Assembly (NCBI GenBank): GCA_019636215.1 | Contig: JAHBXZ010000005.1 | Span: 73,514-97,513, forward strand | Reading direction: 5' to 3' | DNA: 24,000 bases | Source: Planctomycetota bacterium | GTDB taxonomy: Bacteria > Planctomycetota > UBA8742 > UBA2392 | Shown: in pieces, positions 4,245 to 22,201 of the stretch | Numbering within the stretch: position 1 is the first letter of the stretch | Layout of the letters: each line of letters begins with the position of its first letter | Notes under the pieces: model-generated | Database searches by the model: none | Told to the model about the DNA's origin: nothing | What the model saw: only the letters and a program-made list of their open reading frames with translations | Made by a program: the position numbers and the translations under genes

Positions 4245-6521
4245 TTGCTAGTTTGTCGCCAGATGGAGTTCCCAGCCAGACGTCCTGATCCTGCCGAGGC
4301 CCCCAACCCAACCATGAATGCAATGACCCAATCTGCGGCGATTCCTCTTATCGGCACACACCGCAACCTGCGGGCGCTGGTTGATTACAGCGCCGGTTTT
4401 GCCCGCCAGGCCAAGGCTTCCGGCCAGCGCCTTCTGTGGGCGCCGGCCCACGCGCTTGGTGGTTGTGTCAGTCTGCGCACATGGATTCTCGACCAGGCCG
4501 TGCAGGCACTGGGTGAAAACGCCCCCGAGGAAACTTCGCTGCTGCTGTCCGGCGCGGCCGATGCGATTGTCATTATCGACCCGGCCTCGGCCGATGCGGC
4601 CAGCCTGCACTGGTTGACGGATCTGTTGTCGTGCTCGCAGGAAGTCGCTGACTTGGCGGCCATCCCGCCGCTGCCCCAACTGATTGTACTGGCAACCAGT
4701 CGCAGCACAGGCGAGCCTGCGGTTGCCCAGTTCCTGGAAAAGCTGGAATCGCTGGGCGCCGAAGATATCCGCATCGCCGGCACAGAGTCCGGCAACGGCG
4801 ACATCAGGCGGCTGCTGGATCGCAATGACGACCTGCTTGCGGCCGTTGCACTGGCACCTGTGCCACTGACACTGGAAGACCTCAACGCCGTGGCCAGGGC
4901 CAGCGGCAAGAACACACTGCCGGTCAGCGACCTGCTGGATGCCGGGCTGCTGCAGGTGATCGGCGACCTGGTGGTGCCCGCCGCCACCGACGCGCGCAAG
5001 ACCCTGCGCGAGGCCCTGAGCCCCGAATCGCTTTCCCGCGGCGCGGCCTTGCTGCTGCCGATTGTGGAAGCCCGCCACGAATCGCTGCCTGATGCGCGAG
5101 TAGAGCTTGCACTGCGCAGCGGCGACGGCCGGCGCGCGGCCAAGCTTGCCCGTCGCCGCTACGACGAGCACGTCAATGCCAACCGCCTGGAAGAAGCCAT
5201 GCGCCTGCTGGAGCTCGGGCGCGAGTTGCAGTTCCCGATTGAAGGCGGCAAGTACGCCGCGGAAATCGACGAGGCCCGCATTGCCTGGCTGGCGGCACAG
5301 ACCGGCCAGTTCGAGAAGGCCCGCAGTATCGTCACTCGCCTGGCCAAGAACCGCGGTGCCTACGGGCAAAGCGAGTTTGTCCAGCACGTGGCACTTGCCG
5401 GGCGCGAGCTTGCCCTGAAGGGCCAGTATGACGTGCGACTCGCCGACAGCCTGCTGCGCCGCGCGATCCGCCTGGTGGAAGGCGACCTGGATGCCCACGT
5501 TCGCCTGACGCTGCTGCGAGTGGAACTGCTGGCATCGGATGTAATGAAGCTTGAGGAACGTTCCGGCTGGCTGCTGAACCACATCAACGGCGAGATCCTG
5601 GACGAACTTTCGCCGGCCACGCTGGCGCAGTTCCTGCAGGATACCGCACTGCGCATGTGGCAGCGCGACGACGTTCGCGGCGCCATGCGCCGCCTGCGCA
5701 AACTGCTGGTCATGGAACTGGGCGACCGCCGCAAGTCCCGCGCCATGCTGTTGATGGCGCGCTGTCGCCTGTATGTCGAAGACCGCGATGCCTCCGCCAG
5801 GTTCGCCCAGGGCGCGTTGAACCACGCGCTGCGCGCGGCCGACCTAGCGCTGGTGAAGCAGTCGGCGGCGTTTGTCCGTCAACTGCAGCAGCACCAGCCC
5901 CGTGAACTGCCGCCGATTGCGGCGCCGGGCAAGGGCGCCAAGGCGTTCCCGCGCATTCCGGCCATGGCCCAGGTGCAGACCGCGCCGGTTGCGGATGTCA
6001 GCAACGTCTTTGATGTGCTTCAGGCGCGCTTTGGCGTGACCGGCTGGGTGCGGCGCCGCGGCAGTGAAGTGCAGACCCACGGCAAGCCCGGCAACCCATC
6101 CACCGCGGTGTGGGCCTACCAGGAAACTGACGGCCGGCCGGCCCGCGTGGCGGGTTCCGGCGAATCGCCCGGCGCCGTGGCGCTGGCGCGCCAGGAAGGC
6201 AGCGACATTGTGTTCCTGCAGGCCGGTGCTGATTTTGAATCGCGCGCCGATTCCCTGCTGCAGCTGCTGCTTTCCGATCGCGATGAAAACCGCCCGGCCG
6301 GCCCGTTGCGCCGCGCCGACGTGATTGCCGACTACTATCGCCGCGCGCTGGACCACGGCACAGAAAACGGCCTGCACACCACCATGGAAATGCTGTTCAA
6401 CAAGGATGTGCTGATCTACTTCGAGGAACAGGGCATCGGCAAAGACGAAATGGCGCGCAAGCTCGATGTTTCGCGTGCCACCCTGTACCGCATGTACGCG
6501 CGATCCGGCCTGAACATCTAA
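4245..6521 (+). CDS. Large cytoplasmic regulator with a C-terminal Fis/NtrC-type HTH, helical-repeat middle and a degenerate sigma54-activator-like N-terminal region
   Basis: C-terminus 'GKDEMARKLDVSRATLYRMYARSGL' is a typical HTH_8 motif. The N-terminus 'PLIGTHRNLRALVDYSAGFARQA...' resembles the LIGxSxxM entry of bEBP AAA+ modules. No Walker A, GAFTGA or ESELFGH motif is visible. The start is uncertain (ATGs at 4245, 4263, 4314, 4323; no clear SD). Confidence 0.6.
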   Translation: MLVCRQMEFPARRPDPAEAPNPTMNAMTQSAAIPLIGTHRNLRALVDYSAGFARQAKASGQRLLWAPAHALGGCVSLRTWILDQAVQALGENAPEETSLLLSGAADAIVIIDPASADAASLHWLTDLLSCSQEVADLAAIPPLPQLIVLATSRSTGEPAVAQFLEKLESLGAEDIRIAGTESGNGDIRRLLDRNDDLLAAVALAPVPLTLEDLNAVARASGKNTLPVSDLLDAGLLQVIGDLVVPAATDARKTLREALSPESLSRGAALLLPIVEARHESLPDARVELALRSGDGRRAAKLARRRYDEHVNANRLEEAMRLLELGRELQFPIEGGKYAAEIDEARIAWLAAQTGQFEKARSIVTRLAKNRGAYGQSEFVQHVALAGRELALKGQYDVRLADSLLRRAIRLVEGDLDAHVRLTLLRVELLASDVMKLEERSGWLLNHINGEILDELSPATLAQFLQDTALRMWQRDDVRGAMRRLRKLLVMELGDRRKSRAMLLMARCRLYVEDRDASARFAQGALNHALRAADLALVKQSAAFVRQLQQHQPRELPPIAAPGKGAKAFPRIPAMAQVQTAPVADVSNVFDVLQARFGVTGWVRRRGSEVQTHGKPGNPSTAVWAYQETDGRPARVAGSGESPGAVALARQEGSDIVFLQAGADFESRADSLLQLLLSDRDENRPAGPLRRADVIADYYRRALDHGTENGLHTTMEMLFNKDVLIYFEEQGIGKDEMARKLDVSRATLYRMYARSGLNI

Positions 6522-6911: not shown

Positions 6912-8282
6912 ATGACTGACCCCGATGGCAAGCGCGTGATCCGCGTCGGCATGCTGGGTTGCGGCGTTGTCGGCGCAGGCCTGGCCAAGCTGATTGCCAA
7001 GCACAGGCCGGACTTTCACCGCAACGGTTTTGACCTGCGCCTGACCCGCGTGGCCGTTCGCGACCTTGCCAAGAAACGCGACTGCGACCTTGGCGGCGTC
7101 AGCGTCACAACCGACGTACGCGCCGTGGCTGACGCCCCGGATATTGACCTGCTGGTCGAAGTCATGGGCGGAACCGGCCTTGCCGTGGATGCCGGCTGCG
7201 CGGCACTGGCGCGCGGCGTTCCGCTGGTCAGCGCCAACAAGGCCGGGCTGGCGCGATCACTGCCCCGGTACATCGAGGCCGGCGCCCAGGGCAAGGCCGC
7301 CATCGGCCTGGAATCCGCCGCAGCGGCGCACATCCCGATTATCGAAACGCTGGAACGCAGCCTGGCCTGCGAAGAAATCAGCCTGATCAAGGGCGTGATC
7401 AACGGCAGCACGAATTACATCCTTACGTTCATGGAACGCGCCGGCTGTGAGTACCCGGCCGCGCTGGCCGATGCCGCCGCCAAGGGCTTCACGGAGGCCG
7501 ATCCCCGCCTTGACGTGGAGGGCATCGACGCCGCCGAAAAGCTGACGCTGCTGGCCTTCAAGGCCTTTGGCGCCTACGTGCCGCCGGACCGCATCCACAC
7601 CGAAGGCATCACGCGCATCACCCAGGCCGACATCCGGCTGGCCCAGGGGCTGGATCACCGCATCAAGCTGGTGGCCGCGGCGCGACGCACGCCGCAGGGG
7701 CTGAACCTGCGGGTTCACCCCGCGCTGATCCACCGCGGCGAGCTTCTGGCCGATGTGGACAGCGAGTTCAACGCCATCATCCTGGAAGGCCCGTCCTTCA
7801 ACCAGTTGACGTTCCTGGGCAAGGGCGCCGGCCAGTTGCCGACGGCCAGCGCGGTGCTGAACGACATCGTCCGCATTGTGCGCTTCCCGGCGGCAGGCAG
7901 CCTGCCCGGCTTCCTGCGGGCCGGTGCCGACAACACCCAGGCGGCGCGGGGCGGCAGCCTGGCGCTGTGTTACTTCGTGCGCATGGGCGTGGCCCAGGGC
8001 GCTGACCGCCAGGTGCTGGCGGGGCTGGGCGGACTGGGGCTGCCGGTGCTGGCACATTCTGCGGTGGACCAATCGGGCCGGCGATTCCTTGGTGTAATCA
8101 CGGACATTGTTGAAGAAAGTCGTATCCTTTCGCTGCTTCCGGAGATCGGGCGGCTGCCGGGGGTGGCAGAGGCGCCCGTCTTTATCCGGCTGGATAAGGA
8201 CAACTATCGTGACATCGTCGATCGCGAACAAAGTGCGTATTTCGGTACCAGCCTCCAGCGCCAACCTGGGCCCGGGGTTTGA
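6912..8282 (+). CDS. hom: Homoserine dehydrogenase
   Basis: N-terminal Rossmann motif 'IRVGMLGCGVVGAGL', catalytic-domain blocks 'VSANKAGLA' and 'GVINGSTNYIL...EADPRLDVEGIDAAEKL', and a C-terminal ACT-like region. Genomic context with thrB. Confidence 0.9.
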   Translation: MTDPDGKRVIRVGMLGCGVVGAGLAKLIAKHRPDFHRNGFDLRLTRVAVRDLAKKRDCDLGGVSVTTDVRAVADAPDIDLLVEVMGGTGLAVDAGCAALARGVPLVSANKAGLARSLPRYIEAGAQGKAAIGLESAAAAHIPIIETLERSLACEEISLIKGVINGSTNYILTFMERAGCEYPAALADAAAKGFTEADPRLDVEGIDAAEKLTLLAFKAFGAYVPPDRIHTEGITRITQADIRLAQGLDHRIKLVAAARRTPQGLNLRVHPALIHRGELLADVDSEFNAIILEGPSFNQLTFLGKGAGQLPTASAVLNDIVRIVRFPAAGSLPGFLRAGADNTQAARGGSLALCYFVRMGVAQGADRQVLAGLGGLGLPVLAHSAVDQSGRRFLGVITDIVEESRILSLLPEIGRLPGVAEAPVFIRLDKDNYRDIVDREQSAYFGTSLQRQPGPGV

Positions 8283-9207
8283 TTGCCTGGCCCTGGCACT
8301 GGAACTGCGCCTGACGGCCGAGGTCGCCTGGTCGGGCGACCGCGTGAAGCTGCATGACTTCACAAGCCCGCTGGCCTGGTGGGCCCAATGCGTGGCGCCG
8401 TTTCGCAGCTACAGCGGCACACTGGTGGACTTCGACGACGAACTGATCGAGAAACCCAACCTGTTTGCCGTGTCTTTCTTCAAGGCCGTGGTGAACGCCG
8501 GGCCCGAGTACAACCTGCCGGCACGGCTGGAGGCAAAGATCCACAGCGACGTGCCGATCGGCCAGGGCCTGGGCAGCAGCGCCGCGGCCGTGGTCGCGGG
8601 GGCCGCCATTGCAGAATCCTGGCGCAAGGGTGCCTATGACGCCGAACAGGTGTTCCAGGCCGCCGTTGAGATTGAAGGCCACGCCGACAACGCCGCGGCT
8701 GCCGCGTTTGGCGGCCTGCAGGCCGCCCTGTTGCAGGGTCGCAAGACGCGCGGGCGCAGCCTGCCCTGGCACTCCAGCCTGAAGGTGGCGCTGTGCGTTC
8801 CCTCTGAGACCCTGAAAGAAAACACCAGCGCCACCCGGCGCTGGCTGCCTGAAAACCTCAAGCGCACGGAAGCCGTCAGCAACCAGCGGTCTTTGTTGAC
8901 CCTGCTGTACGGGCTTGAAACCGGCGACGGCGACGCGATTGCCGCGGGCTTTGAAGACCGCCTGCACGTGCCCCACCGCAAGGCCATGATCGCGGGCTAT
9001 GAGGACATCGTGGGCACGGCGCGCGAAGCAGGCGCGTTCGGTGCAACCATCAGCGGCGCGGGCGGCAGCATGATTGCCATCGGCAACGGCGACATGGCCA
9101 AGGTGGCAGGCGCCATGGCGGAAGCCTACAGGCGCCACGGCATGGAAGCCCGGCCCATGACGCCCGAAGTCGCCAAGCAGGGCCTGAACCAGGAGCCCGG
9201 AGCATAA
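8209..9207 (+). CDS. thrB: Homoserine kinase (GHMP family)
   Basis: 'VRISVPASSANLGPGFDCLALAL' N-terminus and GHMP motif 'PIGQGLGSSAAAVVAG'. Start assigned to the GTG at 8209 (AAGGA 8 nt upstream); the GTG at 8233 is an alternative. The ORF-track ATG at 8107 would add a non-homologous Arg/Cys-rich leader. Confidence 0.85.
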   Translation: MTSSIANKVRISVPASSANLGPGFDCLALALELRLTAEVAWSGDRVKLHDFTSPLAWWAQCVAPFRSYSGTLVDFDDELIEKPNLFAVSFFKAVVNAGPEYNLPARLEAKIHSDVPIGQGLGSSAAAVVAGAAIAESWRKGAYDAEQVFQAAVEIEGHADNAAAAAFGGLQAALLQGRKTRGRSLPWHSSLKVALCVPSETLKENTSATRRWLPENLKRTEAVSNQRSLLTLLYGLETGDGDAIAAGFEDRLHVPHRKAMIAGYEDIVGTAREAGAFGATISGAGGSMIAIGNGDMAKVAGAMAEAYRRHGMEARPMTPEVAKQGLNQEPGA

Positions 9208-9303: not shown

Positions 9304-9822
9304 ATGGCCTTCAACCAGCCCAAGGCCTACCTGATCACGTTCACCTGTTACGGCACGCGTCTGCATGGTGACGATCGGGGCACAGTCGACGATGATCACA
9401 ACATTCACGGCACGCCTGTGCTGCCCACGAACCACGACCAGCAGGACGTTGCGCTTCGCCGGATGAACCACGGGCGTGTGTTGCTTGATGCCCCAATGCG
9501 CACGGTTGTCGACAGGACCATTCGGGGGGTCTGCGATCACCGCGGGTGGGACCTGCTTGAAATCAACGTGCGGACTAACCACGTTCATGTCGTCGTAGCC
9601 GCCCAGTCGAAACCTGAAAAAGTGATGAACGACTTCAAGGCATGGTGCACGCGCAAGCTTCGTAAGGCCGACCTCGCCAAGCCCGCAGCCACGATCTGGA
9701 CCGAACACGGCAGCACCCGTTGGCTGTTTACAGAATCCGCTGTCCGCAAGGCCTGCTTCTATGTGCGCCAGGCGCAAGGACCCGACTTGCCCTGGGTCGA
9801 AGACATGGAGGATCCGAAGTGA
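9304..9822 (+). CDS. REP-associated tyrosine transposase (RAYT) / IS200-like Y1 HUH transposase
   Basis: 172 aa. HUH motif 'NHVHVVVAA', conserved N-terminus 'AYLITFTCYGTRLHGDDRG', C-terminal Tyr context 'ACFYVRQAQG'. Flanked by inverted REPs. Confidence 0.8.
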   Translation: MAFNQPKAYLITFTCYGTRLHGDDRGTVDDDHNIHGTPVLPTNHDQQDVALRRMNHGRVLLDAPMRTVVDRTIRGVCDHRGWDLLEINVRTNHVHVVVAAQSKPEKVMNDFKAWCTRKLRKADLAKPAATIWTEHGSTRWLFTESAVRKACFYVRQAQGPDLPWVEDMEDPK

Positions 9823-9876: not shown

Positions 9877-9904
9877 GACCCGTCGCTTACGCTCCGGGCT
9901 CCTG
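9877..9904 (-). repeat. REP-like element, short form (right flank of RAYT); overlaps the pcm 3' end
   Basis: Exact inverted copy of 9217-9244. The last 5 codons and TAA of pcm (9887-9904) lie inside it. Confidence 0.85.
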
Positions 9905-10537
9905 TATCAGCGGCACGAAACTCACGCTGCCCAGGTAGCTGCGATCGACCGTGCCGTCCTCGGCGCGGGTCACCAGCGTCATTTCCTGGCCTTCGCTTGA
10001 CCCCAGCGGTATCACCAGCCGCCCGCCGGGCGCAAGCTGTTCGATCAATGCGCGCGGCACCGCAGGCGCCGCCGCAGCAACCACGATGCGGGCAAACGGC
10101 GCAAACGCGGCATGCCCCAGGTTGCCGTCGGCTTCGATCACGGTTGCATTTTCGACGCCCGCGCGGCGCAGGTTCTCACGCGCAACCCGCGCGAGTTCGC
10201 CGATGCGCTCCAGCGCGTACACGTGCCTGCACAGGCGCGCGGCCACGGCCGTCTGGTACCCGCAGCCCGCGCCGACCTCGAGCAACGTCGCGCCCGGCGT
10301 AAGCGCCAGAAGCTCGGTCATCCAGGCCACGATGTAAGGCTGGCTGATGGTCTGCCCGTGGCCGATCGGCAACGGGCGATCTTCGTACGCAAAGGGCACC
10401 TGCGTTTCGGGCACGAACTCGTGGCGCCGCACACTGCGCATGGCATCCAGCACGCGCTCGTCACGCACACCGCGCGTCATGATCTGTGTTTCGACCATGC
10501 GCAGCCGCGCACGGACAATTTCGGTCTCTGAGGTCAT
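9887..10537 (-). CDS. pcm: Protein-L-isoaspartate(D-aspartate) O-methyltransferase
   Basis: 'RHEFVPE...PLPIGHGQTISQPYIVAWMTELL...LEVGAGCGYQTAVAARL' matches canonical Pcm motifs. Its ATG overlaps the upstream gene's TGA as ATGA (10534-10537). Confidence 0.9.
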   Translation of the reverse strand: MTSETEIVRARLRMVETQIMTRGVRDERVLDAMRSVRRHEFVPETQVPFAYEDRPLPIGHGQTISQPYIVAWMTELLALTPGATLLEVGAGCGYQTAVAARLCRHVYALERIGELARVARENLRRAGVENATVIEADGNLGHAAFAPFARIVVAAAAPAVPRALIEQLAPGGRLVIPLGSSEGQEMTLVTRAEDGTVDRSYLGSVSFVPLIQEPGA

Positions 10538-11544
10538 TCCTGCTTCTTGCTGTCCTGCTCGATCTTCTTGATCATTTCCAGCGCGACTTTGCCCGCGCGC
10601 AGGTCTTTCTTCAATTCGCCCCAGGTCTTCAGCGCGTTCATCAGTGTCTGGTCGCCCTGGGGTTCGCTTTTGTCAATCAGACGCTTCAGGTCCTCATACC
10701 CCTTCAGTTCGTCTTTGTTGGCCTTGTCTTTGCGAATGGCCTCAAAGGCTGCCTTGGCCTGCTTGCCAAGTTCGTGGCCCTTGAAATCTTTTTCCATCAC
10801 TTCAAGCGCGGGCATGGCCAAATCAAAGCGTTTGTCGGCCGTCCAGGCGGCAATGCGTTCATTGCGGCGCGTGGCCAGGTCTTTGGCGCGATCCATGATC
10901 AACTGCGCGGACTCGCGTTCAGAATCTGTCAGTTCGCCCGCTGCCAGCTTTTCGGCCTCTGCCAGTGCCGCACCGTATTCGCGCGCGGCGAAGCTGCGGC
11001 CGGCCTTGGCCAGCTTCTCTGCCAGCACCTGCGTTCCCAGGCCGGGGTACACCAGTTTCTTGAGTTCGCGCTGCAGCACGGTGTCGTAGTCGCCGCGGCC
11101 GTAAAACGCGACATTGCCGTCCACGCCGATCACCGTGGTGCGGTAGATCTGGTCCTCGTGCACATAGTGGCCGAAGTCGTTGTCTTCGTCATAGAAGCCG
11201 CCCATCGGCACGCAGTAGGTGATGCCTTCGGCCTTGCAGTAGTGGTGCAGTTCGCGCGGCGTTTCGCGCAGGCGGTGCACGGCAAACACCCAAAGTCCCT
11301 TGCCGCCCCAGGTCTTGAAAGTAGAGGCAAGCTGCGAGGCGATCTTGCGAGAATCAAGGTCCTTGACGTTCCATTCCAGCACGACGATCACGTCGCCCTT
11401 GCAGTCGTCCAGTGTGCGATGAAACTCGTAGGGGTTCACCAGCCGCCCGCCGGCCTTGAACTTGGGCGCGGGCTGGCCGACAACAACCGTGCCCGCGCAC
11501 AACGGCGCGGCCAGCAGCGCAAGCAATGCAACCAGAAAACGCAT
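10534..11544 (-). CDS. Secreted thioredoxin-fold (TlpA/AhpC-like) protein lacking the CXXC motif, with a C-terminal Lys/Glu/Ala-rich helical domain
   Basis: Signal peptide 'MRFLVALLALLAAPLCAG'. It aligns without gaps to the neighbouring paralog across the redox region, but reads 'EWNVKDLDSRK' where the paralog reads 'YWGTR(TGA)GPCVK'. Both share 'YPGLG' and the helical tail. Confidence 0.7.
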   Translation of the reverse strand: MRFLVALLALLAAPLCAGTVVVGQPAPKFKAGGRLVNPYEFHRTLDDCKGDVIVVLEWNVKDLDSRKIASQLASTFKTWGGKGLWVFAVHRLRETPRELHHYCKAEGITYCVPMGGFYDEDNDFGHYVHEDQIYRTTVIGVDGNVAFYGRGDYDTVLQRELKKLVYPGLGTQVLAEKLAKAGRSFAAREYGAALAEAEKLAAGELTDSERESAQLIMDRAKDLATRRNERIAAWTADKRFDLAMPALEVMEKDFKGHELGKQAKAAFEAIRKDKANKDELKGYEDLKRLIDKSEPQGDQTLMNALKTWGELKKDLRAGKVALEMIKKIEQDSKKQE

Positions 11545-11649
11545 GCCGAACAGGATAACAAAGCCGGCCGGACGGTAACCCGTTTTCGGAAATCGAGGTC
11601 GGTCAAAACTGTCGGGCCGCGGTACCGACTCTCAGACCCCGCAACGCAA

Positions 11650-11673
11650 ACGGCCCGGCTTTCGCCGGGCCGT
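11650..11673 (-). terminator. GC-rich hairpin between the two thioredoxin-fold paralogs (possible terminator or attenuator)
   Basis: 10-bp perfect stem acggcccggc / gccgggccgt with a 4-nt loop. The minus-strand tail ttgcgttgc is only weakly U-rich. Confidence 0.35.
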
Positions 11674-11689
11674 GTTTTGAACCGTTGCA

Positions 11690-12685
11690 CTACTTGATCT
11701 CTGAGGCAAGTTTTGCGGCTTCTTCGCCCGCAGCGAGTGCTTCGTTCTTCTTGGCGAAGGTCTCCAGGTTCTTCTTCTTCACCGCCGCGACCTTTTCTTT
11801 CTCGTTGGCCTCAAGCACCTTGGCCAGCGCGTCCCAGGCCTTCAGTTCTTCCTTCACTTCCTTGTCGGCCTTGAGTTCCTTCAGCTCGGATTCGGCCGCG
11901 GTGGCCGCTTCCATGCCCTTGAACCCCTTGCCCGACAGCGTTTCCAGTGCCTTCACGGCCTCGTGGTACCGCTTGGCGCCCTTGGCCGCGTCAATCTTGC
12001 CGCGCAGCGCCGTCACCTTTGATTCCACGCGGGCGATAATGTACTCCGCGTCGGCCGCAACCGCCGCGTCTTCGCCCTTCTTTTCCTTCACCTTGGCGGC
12101 TTCTTCGGCGGCCTTGGCAAATTCGCCGGTGCCGAACAGGACCGCCGACTTCTCAAGGTCCTTCACCACGTCCAGCTTGCCCAAGCCCGGGTACTTGATG
12201 CGCTTGAGCTGGGTTTCAATCACGGCCTCGTAGCCGCTGCGACCCTGCCAGACAACCTTGCTGTCAGGCCCGATCACAAAGGCGTACGGAAGACCGTTAC
12301 CACCCTGATAGTTTTCAAAGCTGGACCCGTTGCGAATCGGCATGGGGAATGTCAGCCCCCTGTCCTTCGCGTACTGCGTAATGTCGTCCAGCGTGCCGCC
12401 CTGGCTTTCTACCAAAAAGATGTTCAGTCCTTTGCCGCCGTGTTTGTTCCAAAGTGCTTGGATAGAAGGCAACGCCTTCACACAGGGCCCTCAGCGTGTC
12501 CCCCAGTACTTGATCAGTACGACTTCGCCTTTGCATTGTTCCATGCTGATGGCTTCGGGCTTGTTCACGCACACCGTCGCACTGAATGCAGGTGCGTCTT
12601 TTCCCGTGATGTCCACCTGTGCTTGCACCACAGGGGCCATCGCCAAAAGCATGCCGCCCAACAGCAGCATGACTACCTTGTTCAT
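11690..12685 (-). CDS. Secreted TlpA-like thioredoxin-fold protein with in-frame TGA at the first Cys of the redox motif (candidate selenoprotein, UGPC), plus a C-terminal helical domain
   Basis: Track ORFs 12491..12685 and 11690..12481 are in the same frame, separated only by TGA (12493-12491) and 3 codons. The joined sequence reads '...KGEVVLIKYWGTR-TGA-GPCVKALPSIQALWNKHGGKGLNIFLVE...GLTFP...GLPYAFVIGPDSKVVW', a full TlpA-like fold. Signal peptide 'MNKVVMLLLGGMLLAMAPVVQAQ' with GGAG upstream of the ATG at 12685. Confidence 0.6.
12459..12484 (-). other. Candidate bacterial SECIS hairpin downstream of the in-frame UGA
   Basis: On the mRNA, UGA is followed by GGGCCCUGUGU, then GAAGGC-GUU-GCCUUC (window 12479-12465). 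This is a perfect 6-bp stem with a GUU triloop starting 18 nt after the UGA. The lower stem is extendable with a mismatch and a bulged U. Confidence 0.4.
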
Positions 12686-12839: not shown

Positions 12840-14885
12840 ATGGCACTAGTCACTTTAGATGGCATTTCTGTGCATTTTGGCGGCCCGACCTTGATGCAGC
12901 GGGTCAGCCTCGACATTGAGCCCGGCCACAAAATCGGCCTGATCGGCCAGAACGGCACCGGAAAATCGACCCTGCTCAAGATGATTGTCGGCGAGGCCGA
13001 GCCCACCGACGGCCGCATCGTGCGCCAGCGCGGCCTGAACGTTGCCTACCAGGCCCAGGAGTTGCGCTATGAACCCGGCGCCACGGCCTTTGAGGAAATG
13101 CGCCGGGTGTTCACGCAGGACCTGCAGCGCCAGCAGCGCCTGCACGAGATTGAAGAAGCCCTCGCCACCGCCGACGCCGACGAACGCCCCAAACTGCTGG
13201 CGCACTACGACAAGTTGCAGGCCGAGCACGACGCCCGCAGCGGCTATGACGTGGACCGGCGCATCGGGACGGTGCTGACCGGCTTGGGCTTGCCCGAGAA
13301 AGCGTGGACGCAACCCATTGCCAGCTTCAGTGGTGGCGAACGCAACATCATCGGGCTGGCGCGCATTGTGCTGCAGGAACCCGAGCTGATGCTGCTGGAC
13401 GAGCCCAGCAACCACCTGGATATGGAGGGCATAGAGTGGTTCATCAGCTTCCTGCGCCAGACGCGCGCAGCCGTGGTGATGGTCAGCCACAACCGCCACC
13501 TGCTGGATGCCACCGTGGACCAGATCTGGGAGCTGCACGGGCGCAAGATCACGCAATGGACCGGCAACTACAGCGATTTCGCGCGCCAGAAGCAGGAGGC
13601 GCTGGCGCTGCAGGAACGCCAGTTCAAATCGCAGCAGCGGCTGATCAAGCGCATCCAGTTCCAGGCCCGCCGCCTTCTGGATATGGCCAAGGCCTATGAC
13701 GACCCCGGCCAGGCCAAGCGCGCCAAGGCGATGCTGCAGCGCATTGAACAGATGGACAAAGTTGAGGCCCCGGACAAAAGCGAACACCGCTTTCACGCAA
13801 ACCTCAGCGGCGCCAGCCGGCACGGGCACATCGCGCTGGAAGTGTCGGGGTTGACAGTCGCAGTTTCAGCCCGGAGCGCAAGCGACGGGGTAGTTGCCAT
13901 CAGCCCCGAATCTGCGCCGCAACGCATCCTGTTGAACGCCGCCAATCTCGAAATCCACTTCGGCCACCGCGTGGCGCTGGTCGGCCCCAATGGCTCGGGC
14001 AAGACCACGCTGTTCAACGCGATCCTGCGTCACGCCAGTTGGGACAACCCCGACATTGACGTGCAGGACGGGCCGTTTCACATCAAGGGGCGGCTGCGCG
14101 TGGGCAAAAGCGCCAAGATCGGCGACTACAGCCAGATCCACGACCAGAAGCTGCCCCACAACGAAACGCTGATCACCTGGCTGATGAACGTGACCGGCCT
14201 GCGCTTTGAGCCCGCCAGCGCGATGCTGCACCGGTTTCTGTTCAACCGCGACGACCTCGAGCGGCCCATCGGCACGCTAAGCGGCGGCGAAAAATCGCGC
14301 CTGCAACTGGCGCGGCTGGTGCACGAGAAAGTCAGCTTTCTGATGCTGGATGAACCCACCAACCACCTGGACATCCAGGCCTGCGAACAGCTTGAAGAAA
14401 TGCTGGAAGAGTACGAAGGCACGCTGCTGGTGATCAGCCACGACCGCTACTTCCTGGACAAGCTGGTCAATCGCGTCGTGGAACTGAAAGACCAGCAGCT
14501 TCAGGTGTTTGAGGGCAGCTTCGCGCAATGGTGGCAGCAGCGTCACCAGCAGGCCCAGGAAGGCCGCAAGGGCGCGCTGCAACTGCACAGCCAGGCCAAG
14601 GCCTTTGAGCAATCCGCCGGTGCCGCGCAGCGCGAAGCCCAGAAGGCGCACCAGCGTGAACAACACCGGCTGCGTACGCAGATCAAGGCCATTGAAGGCA
14701 AGATTGAAAGGCTCGAGGCCAGGCAGAAAGAACTGGAGCAGAAGCTGGCCGAGGCCTTCAGCGCCCAGGGCACCCAAAGCGCGCACGAGGCCGCGCACAT
14801 CCACGCGGCCTTCGAGGCCACAAGAAAAGAAATCGCCGACCTGTACACCGAATGGGAAGCATTGGCCGAGGCGGTGGAGGGGTAG
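12840..14885 (+). CDS. ABC-F family ATPase (two ABC domains and a C-terminal coiled coil), carrying an in-frame REP-derived insert in NBD2
   Basis: Walker A 'GQNGTGKST' and 'GPNGSGKTT', signatures 'FSGGERNII' and 'LSGGEKSRL', Walker B 'LMLLDEPSNHLD' and 'FLMLDEPTNHLD'. No TM segments. Gln/Glu/Arg-rich helical tail. Confidence 0.9.
   Translation: MALVTLDGISVHFGGPTLMQRVSLDIEPGHKIGLIGQNGTGKSTLLKMIVGEAEPTDGRIVRQRGLNVAYQAQELRYEPGATAFEEMRRVFTQDLQRQQRLHEIEEALATADADERPKLLAHYDKLQAEHDARSGYDVDRRIGTVLTGLGLPEKAWTQPIASFSGGERNIIGLARIVLQEPELMLLDEPSNHLDMEGIEWFISFLRQTRAAVVMVSHNRHLLDATVDQIWELHGRKITQWTGNYSDFARQKQEALALQERQFKSQQRLIKRIQFQARRLLDMAKAYDDPGQAKRAKAMLQRIEQMDKVEAPDKSEHRFHANLSGASRHGHIALEVSGLTVAVSARSASDGVVAISPESAPQRILLNAANLEIHFGHRVALVGPNGSGKTTLFNAILRHASWDNPDIDVQDGPFHIKGRLRVGKSAKIGDYSQIHDQKLPHNETLITWLMNVTGLRFEPASAMLHRFLFNRDDLERPIGTLSGGEKSRLQLARLVHEKVSFLMLDEPTNHLDIQACEQLEEMLEEYEGTLLVISHDRYFLDKLVNRVVELKDQQLQVFEGSFAQWWQQRHQQAQEGRKGALQLHSQAKAFEQSAGAAQREAQKAHQREQHRLRTQIKAIEGKIERLEARQKELEQKLAEAFSAQGTQSAHEAAHIHAAFEATRKEIADLYTEWEALAEAVEG
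13861..13918 (+). repeat. REP-like element, long form, inside the ABC-F coding sequence
   Basis: 'cagtttcagcccggagcgcaagcgacggggtagttgccatcagccccgaatctgcgcc'. It matches 55/58 to the reverse complement of 15151-15208 and shares the core with the short-form REPs. Confidence 0.85.
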
Positions 14886-18874: not shown

Positions 18875-18910
18875 CAGCAGTCACGAAGGGGTAGGCTGTA
18901 GTACCAGTGT

Positions 18911-18938
18911 CCGATTCCCGATTCCCGATTCCCGATTC
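18911..18938 (+). repeat. Heptamer microsatellite (CCGATTC)x4 (GGGAATC-phased on the minus strand)
   Basis: Perfect tandem copies counted directly. It directly abuts the REP copy at 18939. Confidence 0.95.
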
Positions 18939-18966
18939 GTCCCGTCGCTTACGCTCCGGGCTCCTG
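18939..18966 (-). repeat. REP-like element, short form, immediately after the murJ stop
   Basis: 'gtcccgtcgcttacgctccgggctcctg' matches 27/28 to 9877-9904. Confidence 0.85.
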
Positions 18967-20820
18967 TCACGCCCCTCGCCGCTTGCGCAGGTTCAGGGCC
19001 TGCTCGACCTCCGGCGCGCGCAGCGCCAGGCTCAGGCCGCCATAGATCACCACTCCTGCCAGCACACCCGCGCCCACGCTCAACAGCAGGCTCCAACGCC
19101 CGGTCAGGCCGAACTTGCCTGCCAGCCCCAGCTGGATCGCGTAAGCCCCTGCCCCCATCACGCAGGAAACCAGCAGCGCGCGCAGGATGCTGCGCGGGAT
19201 CTCGCGCACTTTGCTGGGGCTCATGGGCTGCGCCAGGCGCTCGCTGGTGGCCGGCACAGCAGCCGCGCGCAGGCTTTCCAGTACGGTGCCGCGCAGCCTG
19301 CGCTTGAGATACCAGATCATCATCGCCAGGTTGAGCGCGCCGGAAATCGCCGTGCCCAGCGCCAGCCCGGCCTCCTTCAAGGGTGTCTGAAGCAGAATCA
19401 CGTTGGCCACCAGGTTCACGGCCACACAAACCAGTGCCAGGCGCGTAGGCGTGCGGTGGTCGCGCAGCGCATAGAACGCCTTGGTCAGCAGGCTCTGGAC
19501 GCTGACAATCGGCAGGCTCACACACAGCATCACCAGCACCAGCGCCGAACGCTGCAGCATGGCCGGGTCACTGTTGCGCCCGCCGAACAGCAGGCTGGTG
19601 ATCGGCAACGCCAGCGCCGCAAGACCGGCCGCGGCCGGCAGGGCCACAAAGGCAATCAGGCGCGCGCTGTTCAGCAGGCTGGCAGTGAACTTGTCCAGTT
19701 CATTGGCCGCGGCAAACCGCGACATCAGCGGGAACATCGCCGTGCCCAGCGCCACACCCACCAGCCCCAGCGGAAACTGAAACAGCCGCGTCGCGTACGC
19801 GTAACTTGCCACAGCGCCGTCGCCCGGCACCAGCAGTTCGGCCAGCAACTGGTCGGCAAAGGTGTTCACCTGAAACACGGCCAGCGCAAACAGCATCGGC
19901 GCCATGGCCTTGAAGGTCTCGCGCAGGCCGGGTTCGCCCAGTGCCAGCCGCGGGCGCGAAAGCAGCCCCACCCGCTTCAGGTCCGGCATCTGCAGCAGCC
20001 ATTGCGCCATGCCCGAAACCAGCACGCCGATCGACATGACGATGATGGCCATGTGCGGCTGGTCGCGCAGCGGCGACAGCAGCAGGCCCACCAGCACCCC
20101 CACCCAGATCAGGTTGGCAATCGCCGGCGTGATGGCCGGCAGGCCGAAGCGGTTCCAGCAGTTCAACGCCCCGGCCTGCAGCGCCGACAGGCAGATGAAG
20201 ATGACATACGGCAGCAGGATCGACAGGTACTGCCGGAACGCCGCAAACTTCACCGGGTCGCCAAACCAGCGCGCCGGCACCAGCCACACCATCGCCAAAG
20301 ACAGCACACACACAACGCCCAGCCCCGCGGCCAGCAGAAACGCCATGGTGCCCAGCAGCCGCTGCGTGGCCTGCATGTCGCCGCGCAGGCGGTAACGGGT
20401 CAGCACCGGGATCATCGCGCTGGAAAGCGCGCCCTCGCCGAACAGCTTGCGGAACAGGTTGGGGATGGTGAAGGCAATGAAAAACGCGTCAATCTCGCGC
20501 CCGAACCCGAACAGCATGGCCGTCAGCACGTCGCGGGCCAGCCCGCTGACCCGGCTGACCAGCGTGGCCAGGCTGATCACCATGGCCGAGCCCAGAACAC
20601 CCCGCGCGGGCGCGACAACCCGGGCCGAACGCTGCTCTTCCTCGATGCGGACGGAATCGGCCGCGATGTCACCCGCCGAAAGGCCCTCCGAAACGGCAAC
20701 CGGACCAGCCGCCTGGGGCGTCGGGTCCGGTTGGGGAGATGTTTCAGCCATGGGCGTGCTCTTGCGGGTGGCATGGCCGCGAGGGCCGGGCAGACACATC
20801 GGCGCAGACGCCGATGCCAC
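18967..20820 (-). CDS. murJ: Lipid II flippase MurJ (MviN family)
   Basis: 'SRVSGLARDVLTAMLFGFGREIDAFFIAFTIPNLFRKLFGEGALSSAMIPVL' is the canonical MurJ N-terminal block, followed by about 14 hydrophobic segments. The start is uncertain: GTG 20820 is the longest, with ATGs at 20799 and 20751 as alternatives. The first 70 aa or so are non-homologous and Pro/Ala-rich. Confidence 0.85.
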   Translation of the reverse strand: MASASAPMCLPGPRGHATRKSTPMAETSPQPDPTPQAAGPVAVSEGLSAGDIAADSVRIEEEQRSARVVAPARGVLGSAMVISLATLVSRVSGLARDVLTAMLFGFGREIDAFFIAFTIPNLFRKLFGEGALSSAMIPVLTRYRLRGDMQATQRLLGTMAFLLAAGLGVVCVLSLAMVWLVPARWFGDPVKFAAFRQYLSILLPYVIFICLSALQAGALNCWNRFGLPAITPAIANLIWVGVLVGLLLSPLRDQPHMAIIVMSIGVLVSGMAQWLLQMPDLKRVGLLSRPRLALGEPGLRETFKAMAPMLFALAVFQVNTFADQLLAELLVPGDGAVASYAYATRLFQFPLGLVGVALGTAMFPLMSRFAAANELDKFTASLLNSARLIAFVALPAAAGLAALALPITSLLFGGRNSDPAMLQRSALVLVMLCVSLPIVSVQSLLTKAFYALRDHRTPTRLALVCVAVNLVANVILLQTPLKEAGLALGTAISGALNLAMMIWYLKRRLRGTVLESLRAAAVPATSERLAQPMSPSKVREIPRSILRALLVSCVMGAGAYAIQLGLAGKFGLTGRWSLLLSVGAGVLAGVVIYGGLSLALRAPEVEQALNLRKRRGA

Positions 20821-20823
20821 GGG

Positions 20824-21636
20824 TTACCCCTTGCCGGCCTCAGCCCCGAAGCGCTTCTCCAGTTCCTTTCGGATTTCCGACACGTAGCCCTTTGCGATTT
20901 CCTGCAACGGCTTCTGTTCCTTGCCGTCGCGCACCCGCACGCTTACCTTCACGCGCAGGCTTTCGCCTTCGGTGCGGTCGTAAATCGTGATCCGCACGTC
21001 GTCCTGGTTTTTCTCCAGCGGGTTCTTCTTGGCGGCGCGGATGAACCCGCGGTCTTTCTCGGACTGTTCGATGGCACCGTAGGCCTTGGCTACGGCCTCG
21101 GCGGCTTCAAAGGCCTGGCCGGGCTTGACCTTGAAGTAGGCCACGGCCTCGTCATCGGCCACGGCGTCTTCACTGGTGGTATCCAGGCGGCCCTTGTCGG
21201 GGTCTTCGTCGCCACCCTTCCACTTCTTGATCACCCGCCACACCGCGTTGGTGTACTCCTTGGCGATGTCCTGGCGCTCGCCGCCGTCGGCGTTCTTGGA
21301 AAACCAGGCGTGCACAATCAGGCGCGAAACCACCTTGCCGTCCTTGGTTTTGTCGTACACCTTGCCGCGCAGGTTGTAGCCCATGGTCGAACTGGAATCC
21401 GGCGGCAGGTTCAGGCCGGTAAGCTCCATCTTTTCGGCGTCTTCCTTGTCGATGCGGCCGTTCTGCTTCACGACCAGCCGGAAGGCCTCCCAGGTGTCGC
21501 GGGTGCTGGCCTCGTAATCCTGCAGCCAGCCGTCGGTGCTTTCGGGCTTGCCGGTAAACGAAAAGAACTCGGCTGCTTCACGGCAACCGCCAAGCGTAAT
21601 CATGGCCAGTACGGCAATCAGCATAGCGTGCTTCAT
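20824..21636 (-). CDS. Hypothetical lipoprotein
   Basis: Lipobox 'MITLGGC'. Charged soluble body with no motif I recognise. Tightly packed between the adenosyltransferase gene and murJ, with 4-nt and 3-nt gaps. Confidence 0.65.
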   Translation of the reverse strand: MKHAMLIAVLAMITLGGCREAAEFFSFTGKPESTDGWLQDYEASTRDTWEAFRLVVKQNGRIDKEDAEKMELTGLNLPPDSSSTMGYNLRGKVYDKTKDGKVVSRLIVHAWFSKNADGGERQDIAKEYTNAVWRVIKKWKGGDEDPDKGRLDTTSEDAVADDEAVAYFKVKPGQAFEAAEAVAKAYGAIEQSEKDRGFIRAAKKNPLEKNQDDVRITIYDRTEGESLRVKVSVRVRDGKEQKPLQEIAKGYVSEIRKELEKRFGAEAGKG

Positions 21637-21640
21637 GGTT

Positions 21641-22201
21641 TCAGCTCTTGTTAGGGGTCCAGGGAATGTCGGCCACCTTGGCGCGATGGTTCGCCAGCCG
21701 CGCCATGGTGAACAGCCAGTCAGAAAGCCGGTTCAGGTATTTGATTCCGGGCATCAGGCGCTGCGACAGCTTCGGAAAGCTGACACGCACCGCGCTGGTT
21801 TCGCGTTCGGCGCGGCGGCAGACGGTGCGGGCCAGGTGCAGCACTGCGGCCAAACGCGTGCCGCCGGGCAGGATGAAGTTGCGCAGCGGGGCAAGCTCGG
21901 TGTCAGCGGCGTCAATCTGCTGTTCCATCGTGGTGATCAGCGCTTCGTCGAGTTTGGGCGTGGTCGGCGACAACTGGTCGCCGGAGGCCAGAATCGCCCC
22001 CAGGTTGAACAGCTCCACCTGGTGGGCCTGCATGCGGGCGCGGATCTCGGGGTCGCCGTCTTCGGCCGCGACAACGCCAATCAGCGAGTTAAGCTCGTCC
22101 ACTGTGCCATAGGCGGCAACCCGCGCGTCGTGCTTGGGCACCCGCGCACCGCCGAAAAGTCCGGTCGAGCCATCATCGCCGGTTTTGGTGTAAATCTTCA
22201 T
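21641..22201 (-). CDS. PduO-type ATP:cob(I)alamin adenosyltransferase
   Basis: 'MKIYTKTGDDGSTGLFGGARVPKHDARVAAYGTVDELNS' is the hallmark PduO/MMAB N-terminus. The start is the ATG at 22201 rather than the ORF-track start at 22231. Confidence 0.85.
   Translation of the reverse strand: MKIYTKTGDDGSTGLFGGARVPKHDARVAAYGTVDELNSLIGVVAAEDGDPEIRARMQAHQVELFNLGAILASGDQLSPTTPKLDEALITTMEQQIDAADTELAPLRNFILPGGTRLAAVLHLARTVCRRAERETSAVRVSFPKLSQRLMPGIKYLNRLSDWLFTMARLANHRAKVADIPWTPNKS

Follow-up and report, generated by a model that had tools for sequence, protein, structure and literature searches.

The stretch of DNA analysed here, 24,000 nucleotides (nt) of contig JAHBXZ010000005.1 from a Planctomycetota bacterium (hereafter the window), carries on its minus strand a gene for a thioredoxin-like protein that is interrupted by an in-frame TGA and that we regard as a candidate selenoprotein gene. 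On the minus strand, 331 codons in a single frame run from 12685 to a TAG stop that ends at 11690, and the TGA at 12493-12491 is their sole internal stop. Two open reading frames (ORFs) are called in this same frame, one of 64 amino acids (aa; 12685..12491) and one of 263 aa (12481..11690). The read-through product starts with MNKVVMLLLGGMLLAMAPVVQAQ, later reads EQCKGEVVLIKYWGTR-[TGA]-GPCVKALPS (site context VVLIKYWGTR, stop, GPCVKALPS) and ends at the TAG. The TGA takes the position of the first Cys of a W-x-x-x-C-G-P-C motif, at codon 65. A sequence-only reading of the window had already joined the two minus-strand ORFs in one frame and set the stop on the first Cys of a CxxC motif, with the A of the TGA at 12491; the 331 codons with a single internal stop, the context KYWGTR-[TGA]-GPCVKALPS and the coordinate all agree with it.

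The complete candidate coding sequence (CDS; 11690..12685, minus strand), with selenocysteine (Sec) at codon 65, is delimited by the single frame, by a Pfam match that runs across the TGA and by clusters of truncated homologues. In the mRNA the UGA (12491..12493, minus strand) would encode U65, the first residue of U-G-P-C. The codon at 12482..12484 (minus strand) encodes Cys68, the predicted resolving Cys of the UxxC motif, which is Cys (TGC or TGT) in 22 of the 22 Sec-type loci of our codon alignment. At the 5′ end of the gene, 12617..12685 (minus strand) is predicted to code for a Sec-type export signal peptide (MNKVVMLLLGGMLLAMAPVVQAQ), as read by eye from an n-region, a hydrophobic core and a small-residue AQ end; a signal-peptide-like pattern is present in all homologues.

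When the stop was replaced by Cys, residues 28-149, which span the TGA, matched the Pfam domains AhpC-TSA (41.8 bits, cutoff 26) and Redoxin (38.8 bits, cutoff 26.6). The nearest NCBIfam models for the catalytic domain are ResA, StoA, TlpA and DsbE, all with scores far below their cut-offs (ResA 63 versus 170; TlpA 24 versus 230). Since these scores are far under the equivalog and subfamily cut-offs, the protein is not an orthologue of a named enzyme. The structure was modelled on a Cys-containing homologue (P0008, 57% identical to the window protein) using an alignment of 45 sequences, and the resulting AlphaFold model has a predicted local distance difference test score of 92.2 and a predicted template modelling (TM) score of 0.82. 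Residues ~30-160 of this model form a thioredoxin fold, in which the CxxC motif lies between a strand (58-64) and a helix (69-85). Its best Foldseek matches in the PDB are the Bacillus thiol-disulfide oxidoreductase 4nmu, ResA (1st9, 2f9s, 1su9), the DsbE-like protein 3gl3, Etrx2 (2yp6) and the C-terminal domain of DipZ, with TM scores of ~0.7, normalised to the target. The Pfam matches, the similarity to the NCBIfam ResA model and the homologue model together delimit a TlpA/ResA-like thioredoxin-fold catalytic domain at residues ~24-165 of the window protein (12191..12616, minus strand).

This domain is followed by an all-alpha C-terminal domain at residues ~170-331 (11693..12178, minus strand), recognised from eight confident helices in the homologue model and from a match to the tail of NCBIfam NF041382, the "VPGUxxT family thioredoxin-like (seleno)protein, type 1". 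The helical tail of P0008 (~175-330) had no PDB counterpart among the top Foldseek matches. Residues 174-329 of the window protein (~11696-12166) align with positions 192-349 of the 349 positions of the NF041382 profile (E = 2.5e-19, 69.8 bits, cut-off 350). Membership in this family was rejected on account of the score (69.8 versus 350 bits), the restriction of the match to the tail and the absence of a VPGUxxT motif. The downstream paralogue described below has at residues 172-325 a helical C-terminal domain that is likewise homologous to the NF041382 tail. These similarities suggest an accessory domain that is shared among different thioredoxin-like selenoproteins.

A peroxiredoxin with a PxxxTxxC motif was also considered and rejected. 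No Thr or Ser is conserved three residues before the active residue, the residues preceding U differ among the copies (TR, TK, IN, PK, VK, IT), and a CxxC-type dyad is present. By its motif the protein is classified as a CxxC-type reductase and not as a peroxiredoxin. Among the related loci introduced below, the motif varies to UPPC (L008b, L028) and to UPTC (L015).

Conservation of the TGA codon and of a downstream hairpin

A protein search with the read-through product found 60 relatives, all from metagenomes or from Planctomycetota metagenome-assembled genomes (MAGs), and we compared the DNA of 25 genome loci and 12 metagenome loci (numbered with L; protein clusters with P). About 45 of the homologue clusters, at 50-96% identity, are called as fragments of ~263 aa, nearly all of them beginning M/V-KALPS, and the start of the fragment is a GTG four codons past the TGA. 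Full-length relatives of ~330 aa (48-58% identity) have CGPC. At the aligned codon TGA is found in the window and in 29 further loci (30 in all), whose proteins are 38-88% identical to that of the window; these 29 are spread over 18 species-level Planctomycetota MAGs and four metagenome contigs. The 17 Cys-type copies in the compared loci, most of which stand in tandem with a Sec copy, have TGC or TGT instead. Bacterial selenoprotein genes are recognised by a Sec/Cys pairing, seen here as TGA aligned with TGC or TGT in 17 paralogues, and by orthologues from other organisms that keep the UGA and are conserved as coding sequence before and after it, seen here over the 30 loci.

The N-terminal part, with the signal peptide, a GKDAPxF motif and two conserved Cys, is in frame and conserved in every TGA locus. 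For the 40 codons upstream of the TGA, the pairwise ratio of nonsynonymous to synonymous change (dN/dS) is 0.01-0.23 at a proportion of synonymous differences of 0.5-0.7, similar to the part downstream. One pair, L001-L018, is an outlier with an upstream dN/dS of 0.70, which we put down to an indel that throws the ungapped comparison out of register. Purifying selection acts on both sides of the TGA, and therefore both halves are translated.

These data bear on the possibility that the gene is a pseudogene, produced by a recent TGC to TGA mutation or by a sequencing or assembly error in an ordinary CGPC TlpA-like gene. A single base suffices for this change, and the window alone cannot separate the two cases, which the sequence-only reading had noted as a caveat. 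A recent nonsense mutation or a sequencing error is effectively excluded by the relatives: the TGA is present in 30 loci that were assembled independently and whose synonymous sites are almost saturated, and the hairpin described next is conserved as well. The low dN/dS upstream of the TGA likewise contradicts decay, as does the absence of the tandem Cys copy from this locus, which makes the Sec copy the sole one with a redox motif here. We therefore consider a pseudogene extremely improbable.

A hairpin that resembles a bacterial selenocysteine insertion sequence (SECIS) lies just downstream of the UGA at 12465..12479 (minus strand). It consists of the 5′ arm GAAGGC (12479-12474), the loop GUU (12473-12471) and the 3′ arm GCCUUC (12470-12465). 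Its stem of six base pairs (bp) begins 11 nt and its loop 17 nt past the UGA, and the folding energy is −7.9 kcal/mol for the hairpin alone and −22 to −23 for the extended downstream structure. Every one of the 30 TGA copies has a stem of 5-8 bp and a loop of 3-6 nt with G-U at loop positions 1-2 or 2-3, at a distance of 16 or 17 nt between UGA and loop, and the local hairpin energies over the TGA loci range from −7.7 to −13.5 kcal/mol. The published model of the bacterial SECIS (bSECIS) specifies a loop of 3-9 nt, a stem of 4-16 bp, a G in the first two loop positions, a spacing of 16-37 nt and a minimum free energy of at most −7.5 kcal/mol (PMC13188914). The window hairpin lies within all of these limits, and the geometric ones hold in 30 of 30 loci.

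The hairpins fall into five classes, namely GAAGGC/GCCUUC (24 loci), GGGGGC/GCCCUC, UGCGGC-AGUU-GCCGCA, GGGGC-AGUU-GCCCC and (UA)GCUGC-CGUGCC-GCAGC(UA). Pair changes across the classes were counted with a custom script, which found changes on both sides at four of the six stem positions and the inner pairs intact in every class. Within the main class, the third-position entropy is zero at codons +4 to +8 (GTG AAG GCG TTG CCT) for proteins down to ~50% identity, and the nine consecutive codons with the lowest entropy in the whole gene begin at the Sec codon. The conservation of the peptide VKALPS in the Sec-type copies is thus largely due to selection at the RNA level.

The 17 Cys-type copies have another peptide at the hairpin site (L-x-S-M-P-E) and lack such a hairpin. 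Compared with synonymous-codon shuffles, the mean z is +0.2 for the Cys-type and −2.1 for the Sec-type copies, and the mean local folding energies are −7.8 and −10.9 kcal/mol, respectively (Mann-Whitney p = 0.003). With a covariance model of the UGA and the hairpin, Sec sites of the main and L028 classes score 46-61 bits, and everything else in 516 kb at most 17 bits. Checking homologues for Cys or TGA at this column and for a downstream hairpin, as the sequence-only reading had advised, thus yielded TGA in 29 other loci and the hairpin in all 30.

In several Cys-type copies a GCCUG...CAGGC pairing is possible at nt +10 to +39 past the TGC (L003 11241-11270, L005 11294-11323). This stem is looser and of longer range (−15 to −16 kcal/mol in L003 and L005), is not present in all Cys copies and could be due to chance or be a relic.

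The database annotation of the gene as separate ORFs corresponds to two functional products, a secreted peptide of 64 aa and a cytoplasmic protein of 263 aa that starts at the GTG. Codon +4 is indeed GTG in 19 of the 22 aligned copies and offers gene callers a start, but it owes its conservation to its place at the hairpin base, where its G and U pair in the variants with longer stems, and in L021-23 a CTG stands there, which is no start codon. Separate products would moreover place strand beta1 and helix alpha1 of the thioredoxin fold on different chains and lose the nucleophile, and the two parts are always in one frame with no spacer between them. Two independent products are accordingly highly unlikely.

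Decoding of the UGA

TGA ends hom (6912-8282), murJ (18967-20820, minus strand) and the downstream paralogue (10534-11544, minus strand), as the sequence-only reading had correctly stated, and it also ends the IS200-like ORF and the cobalamin adenosyltransferase gene in the window. In nine related loci the terminal stop of the Sec gene itself is TGA. The code is therefore the standard one, without reassignment of TGA, and we rejected an alternative code. No further credible candidate came from a scan of the window for ORFs split by TGA. An all-versus-all comparison of read-through ORFs in the flanks, aimed at additional conserved U/U or U/C pairs, was swamped by off-frame and low-complexity matches, as is typical of high-GC DNA.

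Recoding and a conserved hairpin, which the data show, do not by themselves name the inserted residue. The UGA could also be recoded without Sec, either by hairpin-stimulated near-cognate readthrough (Trp, Cys, Arg) or by a SelB-dependent, Cys-charged tRNA(Sec)-like tRNA, and it fits with this that genes of the Sec machinery are missing from the window and the related flanks. The UGA, however, aligns exactly with the catalytic Cys of CxxC, and Trp or Arg as nucleophile would kill the enzyme. The hairpin agrees with every bSECIS constraint, including the spacing of 16-17 nt and the G-U loop (PMC13188914), and UxxC in PF00578/PF08534 is the commonest pattern among known bacterial selenoproteins (PMC2398784). 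We give recoding without Sec a small chance.

Several results weigh against a selenoprotein. Neither selA, selB and selD nor a tRNA-Sec gene was found in the 24 kb of the window or in related flanks of ~490 kb; ARAGORN detected no tRNA-Sec in the window and 23 loci, and tblastn with E. coli SelA, SelB and SelD gave no match in the window or the loci, which is a weak negative. The 67-nt fold of the window reaches a z of only −1.9, and the hairpin of a single sequence is weak evidence; loosely SECIS-like hairpins follow 23 of the 666 TGA triplets in the window (3.5%) by chance. Inside the main class the hairpin is invariant, and the covariation rests on a few divergent classes. Rfam had no match for the hairpin region at a permissive E-value or for the whole window at the gathering threshold. 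Bacterial SECIS elements are not usefully modelled in Rfam. What exceeds chance is the joint conservation of codon and hairpin over the 30 loci, not the hairpin of any single sequence. Sec decoding has been documented in Planctomycetes, namely in Gemmata, Isosphaera, KSU-1 and the Porphyra isolates P1 and P2 (PMC4807772; PMC5029168 supplement).

The UGPC selenoprotein proposed from the sequence alone is supported by the conserved TGA, by purifying selection and by a hairpin with compensatory changes and frozen synonymous sites. We estimate a probability of about 90% that 12685..11690 (minus strand) is a genuine candidate selenoprotein gene, which would code for a secreted TlpA/ResA-like thioredoxin-fold oxidoreductase with the active site U65-G-P-C68.

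By analogy with E. coli fdhF and with the general bacterial SECIS model, we infer that Sec is the inserted residue, and we likewise infer periplasmic export, the chemistry and the partner proteins. The hairpin in the coding sequence, with its stem 11 nt and its apical loop GUU 17 nt past the UGA, would be bound by SelB-GTP-Sec-tRNA(Sec), which would bring Sec to the ribosomal A site instead of release factor 2. The signal peptide would direct the protein to the periplasm, where U65 would attack substrate disulfides or oxidised thiols and Cys68 would resolve the intermediate as a selenenylsulfide. Re-reduction might be carried out by a membrane reductant such as CcdA/DsbD, which is absent from the window. 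More speculatively, the C-terminal helical domain may bind a partner or substrate, and the Cys paralogue found in related loci might serve when selenium is scarce.

Paralogues and neighbouring genes

The gene is part of an array with conserved synteny in the lineage, which comprises a divergent gene for an ABC-F ATPase (12840-14885 in the window), the Sec copy, usually a Cys copy, a paralogue without the motif and pcm. In the window this paralogue (10534..11544, minus strand, 336 aa) is an ORF without a Pfam domain and without CxxC or UxxC, and has EWNVKDLDSRK at the motif position. The motif-less paralogue adjoins pcm in 13 related loci (41-75% identity). It is presumably redox-inactive and may be a redox-dead "pseudo-enzyme" or a binding partner. 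The gene pcm, encoding protein-L-isoaspartate O-methyltransferase (9887..10537, minus strand), was identified by the Pfam domain PCMT (E = 1.4e-62) and by the conserved synteny. Its ATG overlaps the TGA of the paralogue as ATGA (10537-10534), which suggests translational coupling of the two genes, and the link between array and pcm is kept across the lineage.

In the closest genome locus, L005 (88% identical; 11000-12250 compared), a CGPC copy lies between the Sec copy and the redox-dead paralogue. This Cys copy is missing in the window, where a spacer of 145 bp (11545-11689) with a terminator-like hairpin is found instead, so that no member of the array but the Sec copy has a redox motif here. 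The source organism either lost the Cys copy or never gained it. The GC-rich terminator-like hairpin (11656..11672, strand unspecified) lies directly past the TAG; the minus-strand RNA reads CGGCCCGGCGAAAGCCGGGCCG and then UUUGCGUU, and termination is a candidate function. A consensus scan places the stem on the plus strand.

Several genomes have two or three TGA copies, at separate loci or in tandem (L008, L026, L010/L016, L014/L017, L007/L022). Tandem Sec-type pairs are found in L008 (10130 and 11242) and L026 (338 and 1431), and many genomes have a divergent second Sec-type copy elsewhere (loci L016, L017, L021, L022 and L023). In a rough, distance-based neighbour-joining tree without support values, the Sec-type copies of L019/20 and L021-23 are basal and most Cys copies form a nested clade; in the same tree, the Sec and Cys copies of L018 are each other's closest relatives. 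This topology hints that Sec is ancestral and suggests conversion of Sec to Cys after duplication, possibly more than once.

Other ORFs in the window are less closely connected with the array. An ORF with an IS200-like Y1 transposase domain (9304-9822, plus strand; Pfam E = 9e-9) lies between pcm and a GHMP-kinase gene (8107-9207, probably thrB) that follows hom, and could be the remnant of a mobile element at the edge of the conserved array. The ORFs at 4245-6521 (plus strand, 758 aa) and 18907-21654 (plus strand, 915 aa) have no significant match in Pfam or NCBIfam; the latter is antisense to murJ and is probably a spurious high-GC ORF.

Relation to known selenoproteins and oxidoreductases

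Descriptions of UxxC selenoproteins that carry PF00578 or PF08534 date from 2005-2008, and these proteins count among the most abundant selenoprotein families of bacteria (PMC1794560, PMC2398784, PMC13188914). They are known as "Prx-like thiol:disulfide oxidoreductase", "Prx-like 1", "Prx-like 3" and "Redoxin family protein" (PMC1794560, PMC2398784, PMC13188914 Table 1), and fusions to unknown domains have been reported for Prx-like 3 (PMC1794560, PMC2398784, PMC13188914). Published representatives are HEU0032618.1 (Redoxin, PF08534, UxxC) and WP_010940744.1 (Prx-like, PF00578, UxxC; PMC13188914 Table 1); another one, for UGC TlpA, is MDE0950781.1. The window protein falls under the domain and motif definition of these PF08534/PF00578 UxxC families. 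Its domain and motif place it in the known UxxC Prx-like/Redoxin class, possibly as a new subfamily.

Tentatively, and with less than even odds, one may go further and propose a distinct, undescribed subfamily confined to one Planctomycetota lineage, in which a WGxxUGPC TlpA-like domain is joined to a VPGUxxT-type tail. Sec would then be ancestral and the tandem Cys copies derived, and the Sec, Cys and redox-dead members might make up a conserved redox module of the envelope, tied to pcm, in which the Cys copy is a backup at low selenium.

No NCBIfam selenoprotein model covers the catalytic domain, and none of the public Sec-type copies found among the 60 relatives is annotated at full length. 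The Sec-type copies in the public clusters P0001-P0056 are all ~263 aa long and start at the GTG four codons past the UGA. Cut at the Sec codon, the database copies therefore lose the signal peptide and the active site. NCBI lists truncated copies as "hypothetical protein", "peroxiredoxin family protein" or "TlpA family protein disulfide reductase, partial"; in JGI, the entry P0055 bears the name "3-dehydroquinate synthase class II", apparently through an error of annotation.

The practical value of the family lies in annotation, as gene callers routinely truncate UxxC selenoproteins. It would add two to three selenoproteins per genome to a little-studied uncultured Planctomycetota lineage that includes MAGs from wastewater and activated sludge, and recognising it would imply a working Sec-decoding system in these organisms. 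The compact and very strongly conserved bSECIS GAAGGC-GUU-GCCUUC could serve as a search model, and the tandem of Sec, Cys and redox-dead copies is a natural case for studies of Sec/Cys exchange. To specialists a further UxxC selenoprotein will be unsurprising, and general selenoprotein biology is unchanged by it.

Like the SECIS of E. coli fdhF, the window hairpin is located within the ORF just 3′ of the UGA and has an apical loop containing G-U. The two elements have no sequence similarity, and that of the window has a shorter stem (6 bp), a loop of 3 nt and no bulged U; its binding by SelB is putative. The minimal fdhF element follows an 11-nt spacing rule. With NF041382 the window protein shares the homologous helical C-terminal tail, and both are thioredoxin-like (seleno)proteins, but the catalytic domain of the window protein is not matched by this model and its motif is WGxxUGPC rather than VPGUxxT. 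The Cys enzymes TlpA, ResA, CcmG (DsbE) and Etrx resemble it in the thioredoxin fold, in a site of the W-x-x-x-C-x-x-C type and in export to the cell envelope, which is predicted here, and they include its best structural matches; in the window protein, by contrast, UGA codes for the nucleophile and the C-terminus is extended by a large helical domain. The closest resemblance in kind is to the Prx-like 1 and Prx-like 3 UxxC selenoproteins, with which the window family shares Pfam domains above the cut-offs, a predicted Sec for the first Cys of CxxC, a candidate bSECIS immediately downstream in the CDS and abundant Cys homologues. It differs from them in its occurrence in Planctomycetota MAGs only, its predicted signal peptide, its conserved all-alpha tail of ~160 aa and the usual place of the Sec copy upstream of pcm, in tandem with a Cys and a redox-dead copy.

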